64,000 nucleotides of DNA from Eubacterium sp. MSJ-33 (GCF_022174665.1 NZ_CP076562.1:1-64000); one strand, 5' to 3'; shown: positions 4,274 through 14,633, numbered from the stretch's first letter. Program-made: numbers and translations. The notes: generated by a model from the letters alone, not told the origin.

Positions 4274-4290
4274 TTATAATTTTAGAAAAA

Positions 4291-4331
4291 ATACATCGAC
4301 ATCGAAAAATAAGATGTCGGTGTATTTTTTT
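4291..4331 (+). terminator. rho-independent terminator
   Basis: atacatcgacatcg / gatgtcggtgtat stem followed by tttttttg just after ATPase stop. Confidence 0.55.
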
Positions 4332-4454
4332 GCTAAAATATATATAGAAGACACATGGTATGTGTATGATAAAGAAAAAAGTAACTATGAAATTGGCTAT
4401 TTACGATATCATATATTTCATATTTGTTTTATGGATATATACGATATGTATGGA

Positions 4455-4600
4455 GCTTAGAAGTTCTTAATGTTCTGTAATTATATCAGCCATGTTTGAA
4501 CACGATGTTCAAACAAGCCGCCACTGAGCCATGGATGGCGAATTGGCGGCGGTGGCGGATGGTGTGAATATGTAAATCAGAACATTTAGAACTTCTTAGC
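4455..4600. mobile_element. MITE-like structured repeat, copy A (~146 bp, ~22-bp terminal inverted repeats, central TGTTTGAAC..GTTCAAACA palindrome)
   Basis: Intergenic, non-coding. TIRs gcttagaagttcttaatgttctg / cagaacatttagaacttcttagc. A 62-bp core is identical to the reverse complement of 12619-12763 except 1 mismatch. Confidence 0.6.
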
Positions 4601-4679
4601 TACAATACATTGTATATATCCATGAAACCAAATTGAAATATATGTAGAGCCAATGCCAATTAGAAAAAGGGGAGAACTT

Positions 4680-5357
4680 ATGTACCAGATACTTTTAGTG
4701 GAGGACGACAAATCCATACGGGAGGTCATCGCCGACTACATCGACGAGAAGGGAAAAGATACGATGCGCCTGACACTCGCCGAGGACGGAAAAGCCTGTG
4801 AGGGCGCACTCGAACGCCAGACATTTGACCTGATCCTGCTCGATGTGATGCTTCCGGATACCGATGGGTTTACGCTCTGCAGGATGATACGAAAAAAGAA
4901 TATGGTTCCGATCGTCTTTCTGACCGCAAAGGGAAGTGAGGAAGATATTCTCTGGGGCTACGGACTTGGCTGCGACGATTATATCGTGAAACCATTTTCG
5001 CTGGCGACACTCTATGTGAAGATGCTGGCGATTCTCCGGCGTACCAAAAAAGAAAATCTGAAAATGATACTTACTTGCGGGAAAATCCGTCTGGATAAGG
5101 AGCGCTGTCAGGTGTTTGTGAAAGACGAGGAGATAAAACTGCAGAATAAGCAATATGAGATTCTGCGGTTCCTGCTGGGACATAAAAATGTTGTATGGTC
5201 GAGGGATGCCCTGCTAAATCACATCTGGGGCTATGATTACATCGGCGTCGACCGCGTGGTGGACAACCAGATCAAGAAGCTTCGAAAAGCACTTGGAGAG
5301 GAAGGAAAACGGATTCAGACGGTGGTAGGCAGGGGATATAAAATATCGGACGTGTAG
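4680..5357 (+). CDS. OmpR-family response regulator
   Basis: MYQILLVEDD receiver with phospho-acceptor Asp (LILLDVMLPD), C-terminal winged-helix trans_reg_C (RLRKKL-like KKLRKAL); RBS aaaaaggggag 8 nt upstream. Confidence 0.85.
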   Translation: MYQILLVEDDKSIREVIADYIDEKGKDTMRLTLAEDGKACEGALERQTFDLILLDVMLPDTDGFTLCRMIRKKNMVPIVFLTAKGSEEDILWGYGLGCDDYIVKPFSLATLYVKMLAILRRTKKENLKMILTCGKIRLDKERCQVFVKDEEIKLQNKQYEILRFLLGHKNVVWSRDALLNHIWGYDYIGVDRVVDNQIKKLRKALGEEGKRIQTVVGRGYKISDV

Positions 5358-5448
5358 CTATGTGTGAAAACAGAAAAATTATAGTTGGTATTATATCTGA
5401 TGTGTGTTCAGGCAAAACAGACGCAGATAAGAAAATGGAGGGATGCAT

Positions 5449-7236
5449 ATGAAGTTTTCGATATTACCGGATTTTGCAGCACGAAAAAAAGAGCGGGTGG
5501 TGCGCAGGCAGAAGCGTACACAGCGAAAAGAGATACGGCAAGGCCGGAAGAACTACCGGTATCTGAAGCGGAAGAAGTTCTGGCAGGTGTGGCTGGAGCG
5601 GTTTGTCCTTGTGTTTCTGATTCTTGGAATGGGTGGTGCATGGTATTTTAGAACCGTGGTGCAGGATACAGAGGATAATGCGGAATTTGAGATGGATCAA
5701 AGTCAGGAAATCATACAGACTTACATCCAAAGGCGGTATGAAGAACTGACTGCGATGGGAATGAAGCCCGGAAAAGAGTTCGACGATCAGATGGGTGCGT
5801 ATATGTACCGTATGATCCCGAGCAGATTGATGGGCGCGTATGGCGTATCTGCAGCGGCAGCGGCAATCTATAATGAAAATGGAGAACTCCTAACCGACAG
5901 CAGTCCACGGTTTTATCTGTACTGTGACCGGTATGAGCCGGTGGGAGACGAGAAAGATCATACGATAAATCTATACCAGTCTTATTATACATGTGCACAG
6001 GAACTGTCGGATGAATTCCTTCAGGATTATAACGACTATTTTCTCTATGGGAATATCGAAAATGGAGAGCGGATGGAATTCGGAGAACTATATGTAGATG
6101 AAGAGAAACGACAGTTTTATTTCAGTACCGTTTCCTGTTTAGAGCAAGGGGAAGTAGTGAAAACCTATGATTTCACACCGGAGCATGTAGAGGGTATGGA
6201 AAAAGTACAGGAAACATATGACTACTGGACGAGAGAAGGAACACGCTGGTACCCGGTTCTTGGAATACGGTCGGCAGAGATTTCGGAGCTTCTGCAGTTT
6301 GCATACGATGTGTATGATGATTACAAGGATGACAAACAGTTAAAAGGTGCCGGTGTGACAGCGGAACGGGGATACTTCGCAAAGACATATGCACAATATA
6401 ATGTGATAGAAATCGGTGATCAAAGTAATGGAAATCCGGAATATACGGTTGTGTTCGCGTATAACTATGATTTCTTTCAGGCAAATCGTGGCTTTGTGGA
6501 GAAGTTCGTAATCTGTTTCATCCTTGCAATCCTGATCATCAGCTTTCTATGGTCGCGGTTTACCTACGTGCGGCTTAAGGCAAGGTATGAGCTTGAAGAT
6601 TATCAGAGAAATCTGACAAATGCAATGGCGCATGATCTGAAAAGTCCATTGATGATCCTTTCCGGCATGGCAGAGAATCTGAAAGAAAATGTACATACGG
6701 AAAAACGGGAATATTACGCAGAGGAAATGCTGAAAAACATTGCGGACATGAACCGTATGATCGAGCAGTCTCTTGGATTCTCGAAGCTTAGCCAGACAGG
6801 CAGGGTTGGCAGGAAGATAGAGGTTGATATGCGTGCACAGACGGATGCATTGATCGGAAAATACAAGGAGCTTGCTGAGTCACGAGGACAGCATATTTCC
6901 GTGACAGGCGAGGGGCAGATGCGCGGAAATGAGGCGATGCTCCGGCAGATGATCGATAATCTGCTGCAAAATGCCATCCTGCACGGAGAAGAAGATGGAC
7001 AGATTGAGATCAACATTGGAAACGGTACATACCGGATTCGAAACACATACACGGGCTCCCTTACGACGGAGGATGCGAAGAAGCTTCTAAAACCATATGC
7101 CAAGGAGGAAGACCGGAAACGGACAGGCGGACATGGGCTGGGACTATCCATTGTGCATGAGATCGTGAAGCTGCATGGAGGAAAGCTGGAGCTGAACGTG
7201 GAGGATGCGGTATTTGAGGTAAGTGTCAGGCTGTAA
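5449..7236 (+). CDS. sensor histidine kinase (two TM segments, large extracytoplasmic domain)
   Basis: H-box AHDLKSPL, N-box/ATP lid (HGGKLEL, GGHGLGLSIV); start chosen at ATG 5449 for GGAGGG spacing (ORF track starts 5443). Confidence 0.8.
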   Translation: MKFSILPDFAARKKERVVRRQKRTQRKEIRQGRKNYRYLKRKKFWQVWLERFVLVFLILGMGGAWYFRTVVQDTEDNAEFEMDQSQEIIQTYIQRRYEELTAMGMKPGKEFDDQMGAYMYRMIPSRLMGAYGVSAAAAAIYNENGELLTDSSPRFYLYCDRYEPVGDEKDHTINLYQSYYTCAQELSDEFLQDYNDYFLYGNIENGERMEFGELYVDEEKRQFYFSTVSCLEQGEVVKTYDFTPEHVEGMEKVQETYDYWTREGTRWYPVLGIRSAEISELLQFAYDVYDDYKDDKQLKGAGVTAERGYFAKTYAQYNVIEIGDQSNGNPEYTVVFAYNYDFFQANRGFVEKFVICFILAILIISFLWSRFTYVRLKARYELEDYQRNLTNAMAHDLKSPLMILSGMAENLKENVHTEKREYYAEEMLKNIADMNRMIEQSLGFSKLSQTGRVGRKIEVDMRAQTDALIGKYKELAESRGQHISVTGEGQMRGNEAMLRQMIDNLLQNAILHGEEDGQIEINIGNGTYRIRNTYTGSLTTEDAKKLLKPYAKEEDRKRTGGHGLGLSIVHEIVKLHGGKLELNVEDAVFEVSVRL

Positions 7237-7390
7237 AGGGAGTGGATTTTTCCAAATCCTGATAAATATTATCATATGAATAACTTTTCATGTATCAAAA
7301 ATGGTGCTATAATCGGCGGTGGTTAGCGAATGCTAACTGTCGCCGATTTTTGGCGTAGTAAAAGAATAAAAAGAGATGGAGGATACATGT

Positions 7391-8110
7391 ATGAGTGACA
7401 CAGGGAAAAAGACGATCGTTGAATTTCAGGATGTCGTAAAAACCTATGGAGAGGGCGAGGCACTGCAGTATGCCAACAACCATGTGAGCTTTACGATCGA
7501 GGAAGGCGAGTTTGTAGTCATTCTCGGTCAGTCCGGTGCCGGAAAATCCACCGTGTTAAATATGCTTGGCGGCATGGATCTGCCGACATCGGGAAAGGTT
7601 CTGATCGATGGGGAGGAAGTATCCGCCATGAACGATAAACAGCTGTCGGATTTCCGGGCACGCAAGATCGGATTTATCTTTCAGTTTTATAATCTGATTC
7701 CAAGCCTGACGGTACGGGAGAATGTTGCACTGACAAAGAGCATCGTAAAGGATGCCGCGGATCCGGATCAGATGCTTTCCGCGGTTGGACTTGCCGATCA
7801 TAAAGATAAGTTCCCTTCCCAGTTATCGGGTGGCGAACAGCAGCGTGTCTCTATCGCGCGGGCACTTTCCAAGAAGCCGCGTATTATCCTTGGAGATGAG
7901 CCGACCGGTGCGTTGGATTCCGAAACCGGTGTGATCGTCTTGTCGTTATTGCAGAAGCAGAGCCGCGAGGGAAAGAATACGGTTATTCTCGTAACGCACA
8001 ATGCAGATATCGCAAAATGCGCCGATAAAGTGATCCGTATGAAGAACGGAAAGATTCGGGAAGTGATTACGAACGAACACCCACTTGCAGTTGAGGAGGT
8101 GGAGTGGTAA
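7391..8110 (+). CDS. ABC transporter ATP-binding protein (MacB/LolD/FtsE-like)
   Basis: Walker A GQSGAGKST, LSGGEQQR, ILGDEPTGALD; start moved to ATG 7391 (GGAGGA 7 nt upstream). Confidence 0.85.
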   Translation: MSDTGKKTIVEFQDVVKTYGEGEALQYANNHVSFTIEEGEFVVILGQSGAGKSTVLNMLGGMDLPTSGKVLIDGEEVSAMNDKQLSDFRARKIGFIFQFYNLIPSLTVRENVALTKSIVKDAADPDQMLSAVGLADHKDKFPSQLSGGEQQRVSIARALSKKPRIILGDEPTGALDSETGVIVLSLLQKQSREGKNTVILVTHNADIAKCADKVIRMKNGKIREVITNEHPLAVEEVEW

Positions 8111-10587
8111 TGCTGTTTCGAAAGATGTTGCGGGAACTCAAATCGAACTTCGGTTCCTTCTTCTCTGTGTTTGTTCTTGCCGTCATCGCGATGATGATGT
8201 TTATCATGATGGAAGGACACGTTGTCTCCCAGAATGCCGCGCGGAGCAAATATCATGATGCCTGCAATCTATCGGATATCTGGATGTACGGCGAAGGATT
8301 TTCCAGTGAGGATTTGGAGACAGTCCGCAATCTGGATTTTGTAAAGCAGGCACAGCTTCGCATGCAGGTGACTGCGAGTGCGCCCGAGCAGTATGGGGCA
8401 CAGGTGGATTTGTTCCTGATGAAAGAAAATGAAGTGAACACACCATATCTGATCGAAGGAGAGGATTTCAACCCGGACGATACGGATGGTGTCTGGATTG
8501 CGAATGCATTTGCCGAAAAACGGAATCTGCATGTTGGCGATGCATTTACGATCGAATACAATGGTGTGACATTTACAAAGACAATCCGCGGACTGGTCGA
8601 GTCCGTAGAATATGAATACAGACAGGCGGACGGAGATGCGGACATGTTTCTGGAGAACATCACGATGGCATATATGTCCTACGATGCGTTTCCAATCCGG
8701 GAGTATATGACACACCTGATCAAGCAGGAGAAGATTACGGCGGCGGATATCAGGAAGCACGCAGATACCTATCAGACAGTGCTCGATAAGCTGGACGAAT
8801 ATGGCATGAATGTGGATGATCTGTCGCAGGATATGCTTCTGACACTGGTTGAGAAGATGAGCGACGAGAAGCTTGTGAAGATGATGCCGTATACACAGAT
8901 GATCATTCAGACGACCGATGGAAAGGCGCTGGCACATGAGAGTGCGATCGCGGAAGCCATCAACCACAAATATTCTGCGATGATCGACCGGAAATCCGTA
9001 CCGGGGCTGGCACGACTTGACAGTGAGCTGGAGCAGCACCAGACATTTTCCTATGCGTTTATGATCATCTTTGTAGGAATTGCAATCCTTGTGATCGCAA
9101 CCTCCATGAAACGTATGGTGGACAGACAGCGGACAGAGATCGGAACGATGAATGCGCTCGGTATGAAGAAGAGGAAGATTTTGTTTCATTACCTTAGCTT
9201 CAGCTTATTCATTTCTCTGCTTGGTGTGATCGTGGGAATCCTGTTGGGCGTATTCTGGGCATGCCCTTGGCTGATTGGTCTGTTTGAAACCTATTATATT
9301 GTGCCGGGGCTGCATTCCATCTTCCATCCGATCTATCTGATCGTCGGGGTTGCAATCGTTGCAGCGTGTGTACTGGCAGATTTTTTAAGCTGTAAGAAGC
9401 TTTTGAAGATCCGTCCGGCGGAGGCACTTCGTCCGGCACCGCCGAAGCAGGGAAAACGATGCCTGTTTGAACACCTGCCGTTTTGGGACAAATTGTCTTT
9501 TCAGGCACAGTACAATCTGCGGGACGTCTCACGTTCGAAGCTGCGTGCTTTCATGTCGATTGTTGGAACCGCGGTTGGTATGCTTTTGATGCTGTATGGT
9601 GTCGGCTGCAACGAGCTTGTGCCGCAGATGGAAGATTTGATGTTTGAGAAATCAACCGTCTCTGAATATCAGGTGAAGCTTTCGGCGGATGCCTCCAAGA
9701 CGGAGGTGGATGCGATGCAGCAGGAACTTGGAGGGGAACTTGTCATGGTCGATCAGATCGAGGTATCGAAGGTGAAAAATCCGACGACAGACGAGAAGAA
9801 GAAACAGACCATTACCGTACTTGAGGGCAAAGGTCTGTACAATATCCTCGATGTGAACAATAAGATCACATCGGTGAAACCGGGGACGGTCAGTGTCAGC
9901 CGTAAGCTTTCAGAGACGATGGATATCCGGGTCGGTGACACGATTTACTGGCATCTGTACAGCAAGAATACATGGTATGAAGCGAAGGTTGGCGCCATCT
10001 ACCGAAGCTCTGAGACGCAGGGAATCGCGTTTTTGAGAGAGGACTATGAGAAGACCGGAGCTTCCTATACACCGACCTTGCTTATGACGGACAACAAAGC
10101 CGCCGAGAGCAAAAAAACACTCGCTTATGTAAGCGGTGTGAACAGTAAATCGGAAATGAAAGCTGCCTATGAGAAGGGCATGGAAGTGATGAGTATTATG
10201 ATTTTTGCCATGATCATATTCTCCGCCGTGCTGGTTGTAACGGTATTGTATAATTCCGGTTCGCTCTCCTTTAACGAGCGTATCAAGGAGTTTGCGACAT
10301 TGAAGGTGCTTGGCATGCAGTCTGCGAAGATTCGCGGCATGCTTTCCAGACAGAACTTCTGGCTGTCAATCATCGGCATCCTGCTTGGCGCACCGCTCGG
10401 AAATCTGACATTAAATGCGATGATAAACAGCAACGGGGAAAACTACGACTACATGCTGAAGGTTCCGGCGATGGATTATATTTTATCCGGTATCTTTGTG
10501 CTGATCATCTCCGTTCTTGTCAGCTTCCTGTTCGCAAAGCGGATCAAGAAGCTTGACATGATCGAAGTATTAAAAGGGGTAGAGTAA
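8110..10587 (+). CDS. ABC transporter permease, FtsX-like (two FtsX/MacB repeats, ~825 aa)
   Basis: N- and C-terminal 4-TM FtsX-type bundles with large extracytoplasmic domains; ATG overlaps stop of ATPase (taATG), GAGGAGG upstream. Confidence 0.8.
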   Translation: MLFRKMLRELKSNFGSFFSVFVLAVIAMMMFIMMEGHVVSQNAARSKYHDACNLSDIWMYGEGFSSEDLETVRNLDFVKQAQLRMQVTASAPEQYGAQVDLFLMKENEVNTPYLIEGEDFNPDDTDGVWIANAFAEKRNLHVGDAFTIEYNGVTFTKTIRGLVESVEYEYRQADGDADMFLENITMAYMSYDAFPIREYMTHLIKQEKITAADIRKHADTYQTVLDKLDEYGMNVDDLSQDMLLTLVEKMSDEKLVKMMPYTQMIIQTTDGKALAHESAIAEAINHKYSAMIDRKSVPGLARLDSELEQHQTFSYAFMIIFVGIAILVIATSMKRMVDRQRTEIGTMNALGMKKRKILFHYLSFSLFISLLGVIVGILLGVFWACPWLIGLFETYYIVPGLHSIFHPIYLIVGVAIVAACVLADFLSCKKLLKIRPAEALRPAPPKQGKRCLFEHLPFWDKLSFQAQYNLRDVSRSKLRAFMSIVGTAVGMLLMLYGVGCNELVPQMEDLMFEKSTVSEYQVKLSADASKTEVDAMQQELGGELVMVDQIEVSKVKNPTTDEKKKQTITVLEGKGLYNILDVNNKITSVKPGTVSVSRKLSETMDIRVGDTIYWHLYSKNTWYEAKVGAIYRSSETQGIAFLREDYEKTGASYTPTLLMTDNKAAESKKTLAYVSGVNSKSEMKAAYEKGMEVMSIMIFAMIIFSAVLVVTVLYNSGSLSFNERIKEFATLKVLGMQSAKIRGMLSRQNFWLSIIGILLGAPLGNLTLNAMINSNGENYDYMLKVPAMDYILSGIFVLIISVLVSFLFAKRIKKLDMIEVLKGVE

Positions 10588-10596
10588 TCCGGCAAT

Positions 10597-12168
10597 CTAA
10601 CCTCTGCCGAAAATCGTATCCATATCCTGCTCCGGCGCTGTAAGTGGCTGGAGCTGGTAGGTATCAACTAAGAATTTGACAACGGTCTCGGACATGAATG
10701 CCGGGAGCGTCGGGCCAAGGTATATCTTTTTGACACCGAGCGAAAGCAGGGTGAGCAGGATGCAGACAGCCTTCTGTTCGTACCACGATAAGACGAGGGT
10801 AAGCGGAAGCTCGTTGATGCTGCACGAAAATGCATCTGCAAGTGCGAGGGCAACCTTGATGGCACTGTAAGAGTCGTTGCATTGCCCCATGTCTAAGATA
10901 CGTGGAATCCCGTCAATTTCCCCAAGATCGATATCGTTAAAACGGTATTTGCCGCAGGCGAGTGTCAGGACGAGGGAATCCATCGGTGTCTGCTTTACAA
11001 ATTCTGTATAATAATTTCGTCCCGGATGGGCACCGTCACAGCCGCCGACAAGAAAGATGTGTTTGATCGCACCACTCTTGATGGCGGCTATGATTTTGTC
11101 TGCGTGGGATAAAACTGCACCATGTGCAAAACCGGTCGTTACAATATGACCGCCGTTAATACCGCTCATGCTGTGGTCGTGCTCATAACCGCCTAAGCGT
11201 TTGGCGTGTGCAATCAATTCGCTGAAATCCTTGTGTCCGTCTTTATCTCCGGTGATGTGCTTCATTCCGGCATAACCGACAACGGATGTCGTGTAAATGC
11301 GGTCAGCGTAGCTTGGACGCGGCGGCATCAGACAGTTTGTCGTGAAAAGCACAGGGGCAGGGATATTCTCGAATTCCGTCTGCTGACTCTGCCAGCTGGT
11401 TCCGAAATTCCCGGCAAGCTGTTTATATTTCGCAAGCTCCGGATAGCCATGTGCCGGAAGCATCTCGCAGTGTGTGTAGACATTGACACCGGTTCCTTCT
11501 GTCTGCGCGAGCAGTTCTGCCATATCTTTTAGGTCATGACCGGACACGACGATAAATGGTCCCTTCCGGATGTCAGTGTGTACGCGTCGCGGCTCCGGAG
11601 TGCCGAAGGATTTTGTATTTGCCGTATCAAGCAATTCCATACATTTGAAATTAATCTGCCCAAATTCCATGATCAGGGTAATCCATTCTTCCACAGTGTG
11701 TTCCCGATTGACCTCGCATAAGCCCTTGTAAAACCATCGGTTGACGTCCTCGTTCTCATAGCTTAAGTTGCGGGCGTGATGCGCGTAGGCGGACATACCC
11801 TTCAGTCCGAAGAGCAGGGTGGAGCGAAGCGATACGATATCGTTTGCACCATCCCACAGAGAGATAACCGGAACAGGTGTGGAACCGATGCGTTCCCGCT
11901 CCGCAATGACACGATGGATAAAATCCCGGATCGCATCGTTATCAAAATTCACATTGGTCAAGGTTGTGAAAAGTCCGTCGATGATCAGACGGCAGGATTC
12001 GGACGTGAAATTCTGCTCCTTCGTAGCTGCCTCGGCCAGCTGGATCAGCTCGCATACGAGCTCGTCTTGCAGATTAGAGGTTTCTGGCTGTTTGCCACAG
12101 ACACCGGTTGTCACACAGGCTTTGTTGCCTGCGGTCTGCTGACATTGAAAACAAAACATTTCTGACAT
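10597..12168 (-). CDS. hcp: hydroxylamine reductase (hybrid-cluster protein)
   Basis: N-terminal MFCFQCQQTAGNKACVTTGVCGK Cys cluster diagnostic of Hcp; 523 aa; RBS aaaggag on minus strand. Confidence 0.9.
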   Translation of the reverse strand: MSEMFCFQCQQTAGNKACVTTGVCGKQPETSNLQDELVCELIQLAEAATKEQNFTSESCRLIIDGLFTTLTNVNFDNDAIRDFIHRVIAERERIGSTPVPVISLWDGANDIVSLRSTLLFGLKGMSAYAHHARNLSYENEDVNRWFYKGLCEVNREHTVEEWITLIMEFGQINFKCMELLDTANTKSFGTPEPRRVHTDIRKGPFIVVSGHDLKDMAELLAQTEGTGVNVYTHCEMLPAHGYPELAKYKQLAGNFGTSWQSQQTEFENIPAPVLFTTNCLMPPRPSYADRIYTTSVVGYAGMKHITGDKDGHKDFSELIAHAKRLGGYEHDHSMSGINGGHIVTTGFAHGAVLSHADKIIAAIKSGAIKHIFLVGGCDGAHPGRNYYTEFVKQTPMDSLVLTLACGKYRFNDIDLGEIDGIPRILDMGQCNDSYSAIKVALALADAFSCSINELPLTLVLSWYEQKAVCILLTLLSLGVKKIYLGPTLPAFMSETVVKFLVDTYQLQPLTAPEQDMDTIFGRG

Positions 12169-12240
12169 GATTGTACTCCTTTGAAAATAGATTCTTACGA
12201 AAGTATGAACCGGAGAATCAAAATTTATTCAAAAATCGGG

Positions 12241-12269
12241 TTGTCAAACAAAAATCCTGTGGTATAATA
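12241..12269 (+). promoter_or_regulatory. sigma-A type promoter (TTGTCA-17-TGgTATAAT)
   Basis: Near-consensus -35/-10 with extended TG, reads into the T-box leader. Confidence 0.5.
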
Positions 12270-12274
12270 CCCAT

Positions 12275-12535
12275 GTATATAGGAAAAAGCATTGACGGAA
12301 AGAGTAGTGCATGGGCACCATCCAGAGAGAACGACATAAGCTGGAAGCCGTTTATGGAAGAAATGTATGAAAACCATTCCCGAGCTGTGCGTAGAAGATG
12401 ACCGGACACCCGGTTGTTGAAGCGTCACCGTAAGGCATGCGTTAAAGCCAAATGAAGTGAAACACTAAGGTGGAACCGTGTGAAAGCACCCTTAGGTACA
12501 AGGTTAAGGCATTGTATCTCAAGGTGCTTTTTTGT
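12275..12535 (+). promoter_or_regulatory. T-box riboswitch leader (probable Thr-specific) with terminator
   Basis: T-box-like cactAAGGTGGAACCGTG at 12463-12480 overlapping the 5' side of terminator gcacc...ggtgcTTTTTT (12486-12533); AGAGAG-containing stem I region; ACC triplet at plausible specifier position; upstream of thrS. Confidence 0.5.
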
Positions 12536-12618
12536 TGGTGATTTATAGGCGTTGTAAATCATGACGTAATTTGTGCATATATGTTGTATCAGATTCTAGT
12601 AATATAAGATGTATTGAA

Positions 12619-12763
12619 ACTAAGAAGTACTAGATGTTCTGATATATGTGTTGTTAATGTACGCAACCGCCGCCAATTCGCCGTCCATGGCTCAGTGGCG
12701 GCTTGTTTGAACATCGTGTTCAAACATTGCTGTGGGGCAACAGAACATCAAGAACTTCTAAGT
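12619..12763. mobile_element. MITE-like structured repeat, copy B (inverted relative to copy A)
   Basis: Reverse complement matches 4455-4600: TIRs conserved, 62-bp core with 1 mismatch, internal variable spacers diverged. Confidence 0.6.
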
Positions 12764-12869
12764 TCCAAACATATTTATATTACTAGAATTTGATACAGAC
12801 ATAAATATACACAAATTACTGTATGATGGACAAAACCTACACAATGTAATAAGAAAAAGGAGAACGAAA

Positions 12870-14633
12870 ATGGTAAATTTCAAAGAAGACGAGCAGTTAA
12901 AAACATTGAACCACTCTTGTGCACATTTGATGGCGCAGGCAATCAAGCACCTGTACCCACAGGCAAAATTCTGGGTAGGACCGGTTGTTGCAGAAGGCTT
13001 CTACTATGACGTAGACCTCGGCGATGACGTAATCCGCGATGAGGATATCGCAGCAATCGAGAAGGAAATGAAGAAGGTTGCAAAGTCCGGCAAGAAGATC
13101 ATCCGCAAGGAGATCTCCAAAGAAGAAGCAATGGAGATGTTCAAGGATGATGAGTACAAGCTGGATCTGATCTCCAATCTGGAAGATGGAACGATTTCCT
13201 GCTATGAGCAGGGCGACTTTACAGACCTCTGCCGTGGACCTCACGTAGATAATGTAAAGCTCTGCCGTAACTTCAAGCTGCTCCGTCACTCTGGCGCTTA
13301 TTGGAAGGGCGACAGTAACAACAAGGTATTGCAGAGAATCTATGGTGTCTGCTTCCCGACAGCAGAAGAGCTGGAGGCACATCTGAAGCTTCTCGAAGAG
13401 GCAAAGGAGAGAGACCACAGAAAGATTGGTAAGGACATGCAGTTGTTCATGGTAGACGATCTCGTTGGACGTGGACTTCCGATGTTCCTTCCAAAGGGCT
13501 ATACAATCTGGCAGGAGCTGGAGAACTACATCAAGGACAAGGAGCGTAAGCTTGGTTACCTGCACGTTATGACACCATGTGTTGGTACGGTAAATCTGTA
13601 CAAAACATCCGGTCACTGGGATCACTACAAGGAAAACATGTTCCCGGCCATGGACGTAGAGGGTGAGTCTTTCGTTCTTCGTCCGATGAACTGCCCACAT
13701 CATATGATGATTTATGCAAACCGTATGCATTCTTATAAAGACCTCCCAATCCGTATTGGTGAGATCGCACACGACTTCCGTTTCGAGGCGAGTGGTACTT
13801 TGAAGGGTATCGAGCGAGGCAGACACTTCTGTCAGAACGATGCGCATTTGTTCGTGACACCGGAGCAGATCGAGGATGAATTCTCAAAGGTTGTTGACCT
13901 GATCTTCAGCACCTATAAGGATTTCGGTATCACAGATTACCGCTGCGTCCTGTCACTGCGTGATCCGGAGAACAAGGTAAAATACCATGATGATGACGAG
14001 ATGTGGAACACAGCTGAAGATGCACTTCGTAAGGTATTGAACGACCTTGGTATCGAGTATACAGAGGAGATCGGTGAGGCTGCTTTCTACGGACCGAAGC
14101 TTGATGTAAATGTAAAGCCGGCTGTCGGAAATGAATATACACTTTCTACCTGCCAGCTTGACTTCTGCCTGCCAGCGAAGTTCCAGCTTACTTATATTGA
14201 CAAGGACGGCGAGAAGAAGACACCGGTTGTATTGCACAGAGCAATCCTCGGTTCTCTGGATCGTTTCATGGCATACATTCTGGAGGAGACAAAGGGTAAC
14301 CTTCCAACATGGTTAGCGCCGGTTCAGGTAAAGGTTATGCCGGTTAAGACAGACAACGAAGAACTGATGGCATATGCACATAAGGTTGTGGATGCACTGG
14401 ATGCAAAGAATGTTCGTGTCGAGTTAGACGACAGAGCAGAGAAGCTTGGCTACCGTATGCGTGAAGGTCAGGTGGAGAAGGTTCCATATCTTCTGGTTCT
14501 TGGATTCAATGAGGTAGAGAATAACACGGTATCTTACAGACTGCATGGTCAGGCAGATACAACTGTTGTTGGTCTGGATGAATTTGTTGCGAAGATTGAG
14601 GAAGAGATCAAGACAAAGGCGAAAAACAGATAA
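12870..14633 (+). CDS. thrS: threonine--tRNA ligase (short form lacking N-terminal TGS/editing extension)
   Basis: HxxxH-like SCAHLMAQA, class II motifs (FRFEASG, GPKLD), C-terminal anticodon-binding domain; RBS aaaaaggag. Confidence 0.9.
   Translation: MVNFKEDEQLKTLNHSCAHLMAQAIKHLYPQAKFWVGPVVAEGFYYDVDLGDDVIRDEDIAAIEKEMKKVAKSGKKIIRKEISKEEAMEMFKDDEYKLDLISNLEDGTISCYEQGDFTDLCRGPHVDNVKLCRNFKLLRHSGAYWKGDSNNKVLQRIYGVCFPTAEELEAHLKLLEEAKERDHRKIGKDMQLFMVDDLVGRGLPMFLPKGYTIWQELENYIKDKERKLGYLHVMTPCVGTVNLYKTSGHWDHYKENMFPAMDVEGESFVLRPMNCPHHMMIYANRMHSYKDLPIRIGEIAHDFRFEASGTLKGIERGRHFCQNDAHLFVTPEQIEDEFSKVVDLIFSTYKDFGITDYRCVLSLRDPENKVKYHDDDEMWNTAEDALRKVLNDLGIEYTEEIGEAAFYGPKLDVNVKPAVGNEYTLSTCQLDFCLPAKFQLTYIDKDGEKKTPVVLHRAILGSLDRFMAYILEETKGNLPTWLAPVQVKVMPVKTDNEELMAYAHKVVDALDAKNVRVELDDRAEKLGYRMREGQVEKVPYLLVLGFNEVENNTVSYRLHGQADTTVVGLDEFVAKIEEEIKTKAKNR

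Follow-up and report, generated by a model that had tools for sequence, protein, structure and literature searches.

Two long palindromic elements lie in inverted orientation 8 kb apart in the 64,000-nucleotide stretch of Eubacterium sp. MSJ-33 DNA analyzed here (the window). The explanation that we favor, and regard as probable, is that both are TwoAYGGAY palindromic repeats, non-autonomous and mobile or recombining, which occupy two sites independently rather than forming the ends of an 8-kb unit. Judged from sequence, the 165-nt motif known as TwoAYGGAY is the conserved tip of a palindromic intergenic repeat of approximately 250–300 bp that is common in gut Lachnospiraceae, which is a new finding.

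Structure and family of the two elements

The initial annotation had described two elements that are reverse complements of each other. Self-comparison of the window confirmed this with two arm pairs, 4487–4617 with 12602–12732 (131 nt, 85% complementary) and 4444–4478 with 12740–12774 (35 nt, 91% complementary). The elements are thus real, but the limits given for them were slightly too narrow; the window sequence and the extents of the Rfam matches placed the conserved pair at 4445–4610 (+ strand, copy 1) and 12609–12773 (− strand, copy 2). A 30-nt core probe matched exactly at 4493–4522 (+) and 12697–12726 (−), with no match in 100 shuffles. There are four occurrences of the 22-nt arm motif CTTAGAAGTTCTTRATGTTCTG in the window, against none expected by chance; they are the inverted arms, two per element, that had been reported at ~22 bp. 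The 62-nt core ATGTTTGAAC...GGCGGCGGT is, as claimed, identical in copies 1 and 2 except for one base, which lies in the second loop (GGATGG vs. GGACGG), and the internal spacers have diverged. Both pairing features noted earlier were found in copy 1, the palindrome TGTTTGAAC-ACGAT-GTTCAAACA at 4493–4515 and the GCCGCC...GGCGGC hairpin at 4517–4550.

Self-complementarity extended beyond the conserved motif, to 4404–4648 in copy 1 and 12545–12841 in copy 2, and these were the only long hairpins in the 64-kb window. The full copy 1 hairpin (+ strand, ~245 nt) had a folding energy of −110 kcal/mol (z = −13), with outer arms at 4410–4445 and 4609–4644 that are 86% complementary; that of copy 2 (− strand, ~297 nt; arm pairs I2 and I5) had −129 kcal/mol (z = −16). 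Both elements are small, have inverted terminal repeats, and have no coding capacity.

Searches with the Rfam model RF01731 (168 positions, curated gathering score 43 bits) gave 125.9 bits for copy 1 (model positions 1–168) and 128.4 bits for copy 2 (also full length), with E-values of ~1e-22 to 1e-25. These matches assign both elements to the known TwoAYGGAY family. TwoAYGGAY is an orphan motif first described by Weinberg et al. (2010, Genome Biol 11:R31), who noted that its closing stem P1 is often very large and scored it as not cis-regulatory; its Rfam type label is Cis-reg.

In copy 1, the 5′ arm of P1 (4456–4477, + strand; CTTAGAAGTTCTTAATGTTCTG) includes the sequence TTAG-N5-CTTA. Because the 3′ arm (4578–4599, + strand; CAGAACATTTAGAACTTCTTAG) also reads TTAG-N5-CTTA on the same strand, the folded stem contains two T-T mismatches. 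Matches to the arm motif placed the 3′ and 5′ arms of P1 in copy 2 (− strand) at 12620–12641 and 12741–12762, respectively, in + strand coordinates. Among copies, the N5 segments of these 22-bp arms vary and yet remain complementary. The first apical hairpin of copy 1, P2 (4493–4515, + strand), has the loop ACGAU, which lacks the GGA of the consensus AYGGAY and aligned to the model with a one-base deletion; copy 2 has the same loop, likewise one G short. Approximately 36 of 95 Lachnospiraceae copies among the matches listed have such an ACGAY-type first loop without GGA. The second apical hairpin, P3 (4517–4550, + strand), carries the canonical loop AUGGAU within GCCAUGGAUGGC in copy 1 and AUGGAC in copy 2.

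Location, distribution, and turnover of the repeats

Copy 1 lies just upstream of the ribosome-binding site of an OmpR-type response-regulator gene (4680–5357, + strand), the first gene of a two-component system and ABC transporter operon, in the sense orientation. Its hairpin ends ~30 nt before the start codon at 4680. In the orthologous copy of a related contig (L003) the outer arms have diverged yet still pair (−133 kcal/mol), and the orientation at this site agreed in four of four contigs.

Copy 2 lies upstream of thrS, the threonyl-tRNA synthetase gene (12870–14633, + strand). A promoter-like site (TTGTCA-16-TATAAT with an upstream TG, 12241–12268) is followed by a T-box leader (12283–12496, + strand; RF00230, 81.1 bits and E = 6.5e-18 over the full length, below the gathering score of 93) and by the T-box terminator hairpin and T-run at ~12470–12525. 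Copy 2, which runs antisense to thrS, lies in the interval between this terminator and the ribosome-binding site of thrS; its hairpin also ends ~30 nt before the start codon (12870), and the element is inside the predicted thrS transcription unit. No intrinsic terminator of its own was found at either window copy.

The presence of the elements varied between related strains, a check that had been proposed earlier. In conspecific metagenome contigs the thrS site held TwoAYGGAY in the sense orientation in 15 cases, in the antisense orientation in two, and a different palindrome in 30; the core was deleted in one, and two sites were short, with almost nothing present. Contigs L001 and L002 lacked the entire copy 2 stretch or had a short site. 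Flank identity between different alleles reached 100% in the T-box leader and 99.7% in thrS. Instead of being recent insertions, these alternative alleles may be long-standing variants that ordinary homologous recombination has reshuffled.

A scan for further copies, whose pattern required the second-loop sequence, gave at least 120 loci, of which ~100 were true. The copy-number check thus showed several copies per genome in many Lachnospiraceae, with at least eight in one Hespellia MAG, at least seven in CAUAFT01, and at least five each in Eubacterium sp. MSJ-21 and Coprococcus hominis; Psychromonas has many copies too. Among the matches listed, the hairpin had a median length of 273 nt in 95 Lachnospiraceae copies, and the TTAG-N5-CTTA sequence was present in both arms of 43 and in at least one arm of 58 of these, and in its opposite-strand form in none. 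Non-orthologous copies in Roseburia hominis An869 were alike over ~320 nt (85–94% identity), beyond which similarity ended; such alignments define the repeat ends for each subfamily.

The copies are intergenic. Among the matches listed, those between co-directional genes were sense in 31 cases and antisense in 27, and tandem pairs were divergent in 14 cases, convergent in one, and direct in none. Many copies beyond the window also finish right before a ribosome-binding site, others adjoin the stop codons of convergent genes, and the neighboring genes are unrelated housekeeping genes. Opposite orientations were found at orthologous sites of related species in three pairs of loci (L028/L120, L024/L058, and L057/L109), and only between species or between different alleles. 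In L028/L120 the whole interior of the element is inverted, but the single SNP of the terminal 17-bp repeat has remained next to its flank; in the other two pairs the arms are unrelated, which looks like replacement and not inversion.

Because the repeats are dispersed in multiple copies, are present, absent, or replaced at one site, are flipped between orthologues, and form divergent tandem pairs, these comparisons show that, at the level of DNA, they behave as non-autonomous, evolutionarily mobile or recombining units. G-U pairs in the arms showed no strand bias (269 vs. 264), which fits inverted repeats acting at the DNA level and equally a hairpin used in both orientations. Conservation is much stronger in the core than in the arms, opposite to the pattern of a typical MITE, and suggests that selection acts on a folded single strand, either RNA or single-stranded DNA.

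The earlier reading of the anatomy as a non-autonomous miniature inverted-repeat element or a structured RNA repeat was therefore right in part. The elements are dispersed, hairpin-forming, non-coding repeats, and the structured-RNA label came close to RF01731; the arms, however, are unlike classical transposase-binding terminal repeats, because they covary, are not the same in different copies, and flank an internal core in which conservation is highest. Like MITEs, the repeats are small and non-coding with terminal inverted repeats, occur in multiple dispersed copies, and show insertion polymorphism. A target-site duplication does not flank each copy: no consistent direct repeat was seen at the element ends in the copies and sites compared, and TTTAT occurred on both flanks of one copy (L081) while the others lacked such a repeat. 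No perfectly clean empty site was recovered among the related strains compared, and neither the window nor the 8-kb blocks surrounding the ~100 copies listed yielded an autonomous partner element; the 8-kb blocks also showed no enrichment of a transposase or recombinase family. For want of a target-site duplication, clean empty site, or autonomous partner, MITE in the strict sense is a candidate term only.

Alternative explanations and a possible mechanism

The initial annotation had regarded the block as a composite-transposon-like or inversion-prone arrangement, in which the inverted copies would jointly end a mobile or invertible 8-kb unit containing the two-component system, the ABC transporter, and hcp. 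The geometry of two inverted copies 8 kb apart agrees with this, but there is no transposase in or near the block, as had in fact been remarked, and a composite transposon needs two insertion sequences that encode one, which elements devoid of coding capacity do not provide. Related contigs kept gene order and orientation with or without copy 2: L001 and L002, which lack it, retained FtsX-hcp-thrS, and L003, which has copy 1, retained the order ABC ATPase, copy 1, response regulator, kinase. The thrS site was filled independently by other elements in other strains, and copies elsewhere, among the matches listed, were single or tightly paired, with no kilobase-spaced brackets. We regard such a unit as extremely improbable; each window copy resides independently at its own intergenic site, the two do not delimit an 8-kb mobile unit, and for annotation of the window the 8-kb block is not a transposon. 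Inversion of each element by itself, by a site-specific recombinase that flips it between its inverted repeats and alters expression of the downstream gene, would make the two window copies opposite states of one switch. The two copies are oppositely oriented and each stops ~30 nt short of a start codon, family-wide orientation is random, some orthologous sites hold opposite orientations, and the L028/L120 breakpoints fall within the terminal 17-bp inverted repeats. That breakpoint evidence, however, comes from a single SNP in one pair, and the arms are unrelated in the remaining flipped pairs; the core has no promoter and no recombinase lies nearby. Both orientations were not seen within one strain or population: the sense-type thrS allele had the same orientation in 15 of 15 contigs, as did the response-regulator site in its four. 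Flipping must therefore be rare and is not phase variation, and an invertible switch is quite improbable.

Gardner and Eldai (2015) proposed CsrA binding for TwoAYGGAY, with sequestration as by CsrB and RsmZ in gamma-proteobacteria, after RMfam gave strong CsrA-site matches in both family loops. The element would then be a trans-acting small RNA whose two GGA loops bind one dimer and whose many copies titrate the protein. The CsrA SELEX consensus is RUACARGGAUGU with GGA in a loop, and the family consensus sequences ACAUGGAUGU and GCCAUGGAUGGC resemble it. The family occurs in Lachnospiraceae and gamma-proteobacteria, both of which carry CsrA. The second-loop sequence GCCAYGGAYGGC was invariant in the copies examined, but because the scan pattern required GCCAYGGAYGGC this is not independent evidence of conservation. 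Against a CsrB/RsmZ-type sponge, no conserved promoter at a fixed position was found across copies, the window copies have no intrinsic terminator and only one GGA loop each, and many other copies share the ACGAY first loop. Because orientation is random with respect to neighboring transcription, about half of the copies, copy 2 among them, are read as the antisense strand, which lacks the GGA loops; arms of 250–300 nt, divergent pairs, and allele turnover are also left unexplained. We consider a sponge unlikely. A dedicated cis-regulatory RNA controlling the gene directly downstream is an explanation for which we see very little chance. The Rfam type label and the many copies that, like both in the window, end right before a ribosome-binding site would suit such a regulator, but the motif was scored otherwise by Weinberg et al. 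(2010), the neighbors are unrelated housekeeping genes, orientation is random, copies also abut the stop codons of convergent genes, and the thrS position tolerates a sense copy, an antisense copy, another palindrome, or nothing.

As mobile or recombining TwoAYGGAY repeats without a promoter of their own, the window copies would be transcribed only within neighboring messages, where each would form a long double-stranded hairpin that is a likely RNase III substrate and would modify the stability or translation of the mRNA. The conserved loops of the hairpins and the pair of U-U mismatches in P1, which together look like a putative site for a dimeric protein, would be displayed in the sense orientation only; candidates for the protein are CsrA or a mobilizing enzyme. 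A more speculative and rather unlikely possibility is that the core and the mismatched TTAG-N5-CTTA stem are a folded recognition module for a putative recombinase or single-strand transposase encoded elsewhere in the genome, and that cassettes of ~300 bp with short inverted terminal sites could invert in place and exchange between loci, in either orientation, without target duplication. Such a module would account for the strict divergence of paired copies, for the alternative thrS cassettes within one species, and for whole-element flips with breakpoints inside the terminal repeats.

TwoAYGGAY has been an orphan since 2010, with putative CsrA binding as the sole functional proposal. That it turns over at fixed intergenic sites, and sits in either orientation in essential leaders such as that of T-box-thrS, shifts the question: the motif resembles a mobile structured element more than a small RNA gene. 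Concrete test cases are offered by the thrS alleles of a single gut species and by the flipped orthologues found in Coprococcus hominis and related organisms.

Comparison with known repeat systems

Correia/NEMIS elements of Neisseria and ERIC elements of enterobacteria are small non-coding intergenic palindromes that are co-transcribed with their neighbors, form long hairpins, vary in presence between strains, and have no linked transposase. TwoAYGGAY resembles them as a dispersed, non-coding, strain-variable intergenic palindrome without a linked transposase, but has no sequence relationship to them. In Correia elements the 26-bp terminal repeats are conserved and a TA target site is duplicated, whereas TwoAYGGAY has variable arms, a conserved asymmetric two-hairpin internal core, and no duplication that we could find.

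REP/REPIN sequences are intergenic hairpin repeats, often in inverted doublets, in which structure rather than terminal repeats is conserved; they have no target duplication, and their RAYT transposase is encoded elsewhere in single copy. TwoAYGGAY is similar in its intergenic hairpins, inverted pairs, and lack of a detected duplication. REPINs, however, are ~100 nt long and composed of two short REPs with a conserved tetranucleotide, whereas TwoAYGGAY is a ~270-nt unit with a complex core.

The window copies share with the TwoAYGGAY motif of Weinberg et al. (2010) a long closing stem, two apical hairpins, and an origin in human-gut Clostridiales; they differ in the first loop, ACGAU instead of AYGGAY, and their hairpins run 40–65 nt per side past the Rfam model. 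Allele turnover, orientation flips, and divergent pairs are not described in that study, in Gardner and Eldai (2015), or by the Rfam type label. With CsrB and RsmZ the family shares GGA in hairpin loops at a spacing that would suit a CsrA dimer, as hypothesized by Gardner and Eldai (2015). Those small RNAs are single genes with many GGA sites and their own regulated promoter and terminator, whereas TwoAYGGAY consists of dozens of promoter-less copies in either orientation, with at most two GGA sites in each and one in each of the window copies.

Identity and setting of the two elements

The initial annotation had described two intergenic elements, at ~4455-4600 and ~12619-12763, as a reverse-complement pair of miniature inverted-repeat elements or structured RNA repeats. 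Direct comparison of the two stretches bore out the pairing, and both matched the Rfam model for TwoAYGGAY RNA (RF01731) over its full length, scoring 125.9 bits for copy 1 and 128.4 bits for copy 2 against a gathering score of 43. The annotated positions were correct but the extents were slightly narrow, the conserved units being 4445-4610 on the plus strand (copy 1) and 12609-12773 on the minus strand (copy 2). TwoAYGGAY was first found through comparative genomics in human gut samples, Clostridiales, and gamma-proteobacteria; it was graded as "probably an RNA" that is not cis-regulatory, with a closing stem that is often very large (Weinberg et al. 2010). The motif is rarely mentioned in the searchable literature, where the only functional proposal is CsrA binding by the two loops that contain GGA, a prediction called untested by its authors (Gardner and Eldai 2015). 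The observation was correct and concerns ordinary members of a known orphan family; the reading as a repeat or structured RNA was partly right.

In the window, a 30-nt core probe gave one exact match per strand, where none was expected by chance. A 22-nt arm motif occurred four times, as two inverted arms per element; the 62-nt cores of the two copies differed by a single base, located in the second hairpin loop; and, as annotated, the internal spacers had diverged. The second loop was canonical in both copies (AUGGAU in copy 1, AUGGAC in copy 2), and the first loop was ACGAU in both, lacking GGA. Self-complementarity in both copies reached past the conserved unit, to 4404-4648 and 12545-12841, with outer arms specific to each copy. 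The folding energies were −110 kcal/mol (z = −13) for copy 1 and −129 kcal/mol (z = −16) for copy 2, and these were the only long hairpins across the 64-kb window.

The gene content was that given by the initial annotation. An amino-acid ABC transporter is followed by copy 1, a response regulator, a histidine kinase, an ABC ATPase, and an FtsX permease, and then by hcp (minus strand), copy 2, thrS, and a PLD-type enzyme. Copy 1 has its core in the sense orientation relative to the response-regulator gene and ends ~30 nt upstream of its start codon. Copy 2 is within the thrS transcription unit. A promoter search found a strong promoter-like site with a near-consensus extended −10 at 12241-12268 (plus strand), and a T-box leader lies at 12283-12496 (plus strand), with its terminator at ~12470-12525 (plus strand). 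The T-box leader was a full-length match to RF00230 (81 bits, E = 6.5e-18), but is missed by a default Rfam scan because it falls below the gathering score of 93. The 297-nt antisense hairpin of copy 2 follows the terminator, and the thrS ribosome-binding site and start codon (12870) come after it. Each hairpin therefore directly precedes a plus-strand gene, and the two do so in opposite orientations.

Two further features of these intergenic regions were observed. A hairpin with a T-run is present 3' of the ABC ATPase gene at 4286-4330; its arms are 94% complementary and show paired changes in the orthologues L003 and L004, and it was not called by a simple terminator scan. The related contigs L001 and L002 contain an extra 93 nt (2540-2640) in the stretch from the hcp start codon to the thrS promoter, and these are missing from the window (~12215).

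Distribution and architecture of the repeat

A scan of one genome per species, with the second hairpin as the pattern, matched at least 120 loci, of which ~100 were true copies, almost all in Lachnospiraceae; the remainder were chance matches in GC-rich genomes. Among the matches listed, the carriers were Roseburia, Coprococcus, Eubacterium sp. MSJ-21, Wujia, Hespellia, Lachnospira, and Agathobacter. The copy-number check proposed by the initial annotation showed a multi-copy family, with at least 3–8 copies on separate contigs of single assemblies. Phage carriage was considered and rejected: the one family-pattern match in IMG/VR lay in coding DNA of high GC content, formed no hairpin, and was due to chance. 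Many copies from Psychromonas ingrahamii were present in the original alignment (Weinberg et al. 2010). In that alignment the copies from NC_008709 are embedded in other repeated sequence, made of recurring GUAACACGCCGUCAGGGCGGAAGACCAACAA units; TwoAYGGAY is thus a dispersed repeat in that organism too.

When 95 copies were folded with their flanks, the median hairpin length was 273 nt (interquartile range 243-311), indicating that the long arms belong to the family and that only the tip is represented in the Rfam model. An alignment of 28 copies of the window's subfamily was a mosaic, in which an invariant core and conserved arms of the long closing stem P1 were accompanied by two hypervariable internal-loop segments (V1 and V2). 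Outside P1, these 28 copies had conserved islands adjoining the stem and then variable, yet self-complementary, outer stems, and they ended in a terminal motif of roughly ATTGYGRAAC ... GTTYCRCAAT. Other subfamilies had different terminal modules, for example GGATTCGGGTGTCAAAAGG. Non-orthologous copies in Roseburia hominis An869 were 85-94% identical over ~320 nt and dissimilar beyond, which delimits a repeated unit with ends.

Copies were nearly always intergenic, and their orientation was random, since 31 were sense and 27 antisense between co-directional genes. No consistent target-site duplication, another check proposed by the initial annotation, was found at the ends of the copies examined, and no transposase or recombinase family recurred in the 8-kb blocks around copies; the neighbors there were housekeeping genes of ordinary kinds, several aminoacyl-tRNA synthetases among them. 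A comparison of L027, L016, and L100 gave no clean insertion boundary, the loci being too diverged. A short sequence common to the 5' side of many copies was considered as possible tRNA genes; none were found, and the sequence was a second TwoAYGGAY copy. Use of the terminal motifs as the mark of an autonomous element was also abandoned, almost all of their occurrences in the fetched loci falling in known copies.

Pairs, orientation flips, and alternative alleles

An Rfam scan of 18 loci revealed 14 divergent tandem pairs (L016, L018, L034, L042, L048, L072, L090, L093, L100, L112, L113, L005, L017, and L059, vs. L031), 1 convergent pair, and no direct pairs. In the divergent pairs the minus-strand copy comes first and the 5' sides face each other, with the model matches 150-650 nt apart. 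Pair members were not especially alike in their outer arms, and the pairs are therefore not recent local duplications. In L017, from another Lachnospiraceae genome, the divergent pair (1172-1931) occupies a position comparable to that of copy 2, directly after a T-box leader that scored 124 bits against RF00230. Together with the aminoacyl-tRNA synthetase genes beside several other copies, this may reflect a preference for the gap between leader terminator and ribosome-binding site.

Three orthologous sites in related species (L028/L120, L024/L058, and L057/L109) carried the element in opposite orientations. For L028/L120 the element was 92-95% identical and the whole unit was inverted against flanks that were 87-90% identical, and the terminal 17-bp inverted repeat contained a lone SNP, which stayed with the flank. 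At this one site, in one pair, the pattern is that expected for recombination within the terminal repeats.

The initial annotation had proposed a comparison with related strains, and among these the presence of copy 2 varied. In L001 and L002, which encode an identical ThrS protein and have a variant terminator, the whole 297-nt hairpin was absent and only a 39-nt spacer remained. When metagenomes were scanned with a 29-nt probe from the T-box, 96 contigs were obtained, and those with the window's terminator were classified. Thirty contained a different palindrome of ~225 nt that is not in Rfam but has similar terminal motifs; 15 contained TwoAYGGAY in the sense orientation with different arms (L150, Rfam 128 bits); two, the window and L205, had it antisense; and one, L165, had the outer arms of the sense type but no core, owing to a deletion at a 4-nt AGAA microhomology. 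Contigs with different alleles reached 100% identity in the T-box leader and 99.7% in the first 600 nt of thrS. Flank similarity does not follow the alleles, and we conclude that a single species-level population has alternative cassettes at this exact position. The 15 sense-type contigs all had the same orientation, so this is not rapid phase variation. The window allele was also compared with the common sense allele as its possible inverse, and the alignments in both frames were equally poor in the outer arms.

The ~225-nt palindrome occupies the position of copy 2 in L143 (reverse strand, ~75-300 nt past the T-box probe), L129, L130, L144, and 26 others. This element (core ...AGACCGTTGAAGCACGCTGGTAC...) had no Rfam match and was not found in the 64 kb of the window, and it ends in TTGCGAAAC ... 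GTTTCGCAA, similar to the termini of the TwoAYGGAY subfamily in the window. It exists in two variants, with paired changes in the arms, and its core also adjoins TwoAYGGAY copies in L024, L033, and L106. In contigs L153 and L166 the sequence changes to that of another locus exactly within an element core, which could be inter-copy recombination or an assembly chimera at the repeat. In a second species containing the 29-nt T-box probe sequence, the thrS leader is polymorphic too: a ~90-nt AT-rich palindrome unrelated to TwoAYGGAY follows the terminator in 20 contigs (L128, L132, L137, and 17 others) and is absent from 24 (L135, L125, and 22 others).

At the response-regulator site, copy 1 was present in one orientation in all related contigs, with outer arms of ~70% identity that retained pairing. 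Counts of compensatory changes between copy 1 and L003 were limited by alignment register, and were replaced by folding each copy fully alone.

RNA or DNA signals and interpretation

A first count suggested an excess of G-U pairs in the arms, which would have pointed to an RNA; however, a control in which the opposite strand was folded gave an equal number (269 vs. 264), and the argument was dropped. The arms thus look like symmetric inverted repeats, and the stability advantage of the sense strand (66 vs. 29) presumably comes from the core for that reason. One strand-specific signal was found in the arms: TTAG-N5-CTTA was present on the sense strand in both P1 arms of 43 of the 95 copies and in at least one arm of 58, tied to core orientation, and its complementary version occurred in none of the 95. 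When folded, these arms form a helix of two-fold symmetry in which about one turn separates two U-U (or T-T) mismatches, a predicted geometry that suggests a folded single strand recognized by a dimeric protein. Guide-like V1 and V2 loops were considered and rejected, since complementarity or identity of the loops to their own flanks (1.5 kb per side) was no greater than that of other copies' loops (8.15 vs. 7.98 nt).

A search for an element-borne promoter found no positional enrichment of −10/−35 matches in the 95 copies and no significant sites in the window. With no promoter conserved at a fixed position, transcription would depend on neighboring genes, and about half of the copies, including copy 2, would be transcribed as the antisense strand. 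These results bear on the proposal that TwoAYGGAY copies act as a CsrA sponge through the predicted binding of CsrA to two GGA loops. For the window copies that proposal is weakened, because each has one GGA loop, neither has its own promoter, and an essential leader contains copy 2 in antisense. For thrS and the response-regulator operon, we infer that the likeliest effect would be on processing or stability, exerted by a long double-stranded hairpin in the 5' UTR.

The initial annotation had also regarded the inverted copies as bracketing an 8-kb block resembling a composite transposon. This arrangement was not supported: the block has no transposase, related contigs share the gene order both with and without copy 2, and the thrS site has been filled independently by other elements. 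In the best-supported interpretation, TwoAYGGAY forms the conserved tip of a palindromic repeat that is non-autonomous. Over evolutionary timescales, intergenic sites would see such repeats copied, lost, replaced, and flipped. Candidate partners of the conserved core and of repeat movement are CsrA and a mobilizing enzyme. Beside the TwoAYGGAY literature examined, in which they are not described, the long arms, divergent pairs, cassette-like alleles, and flips add features of the family that can be tested.
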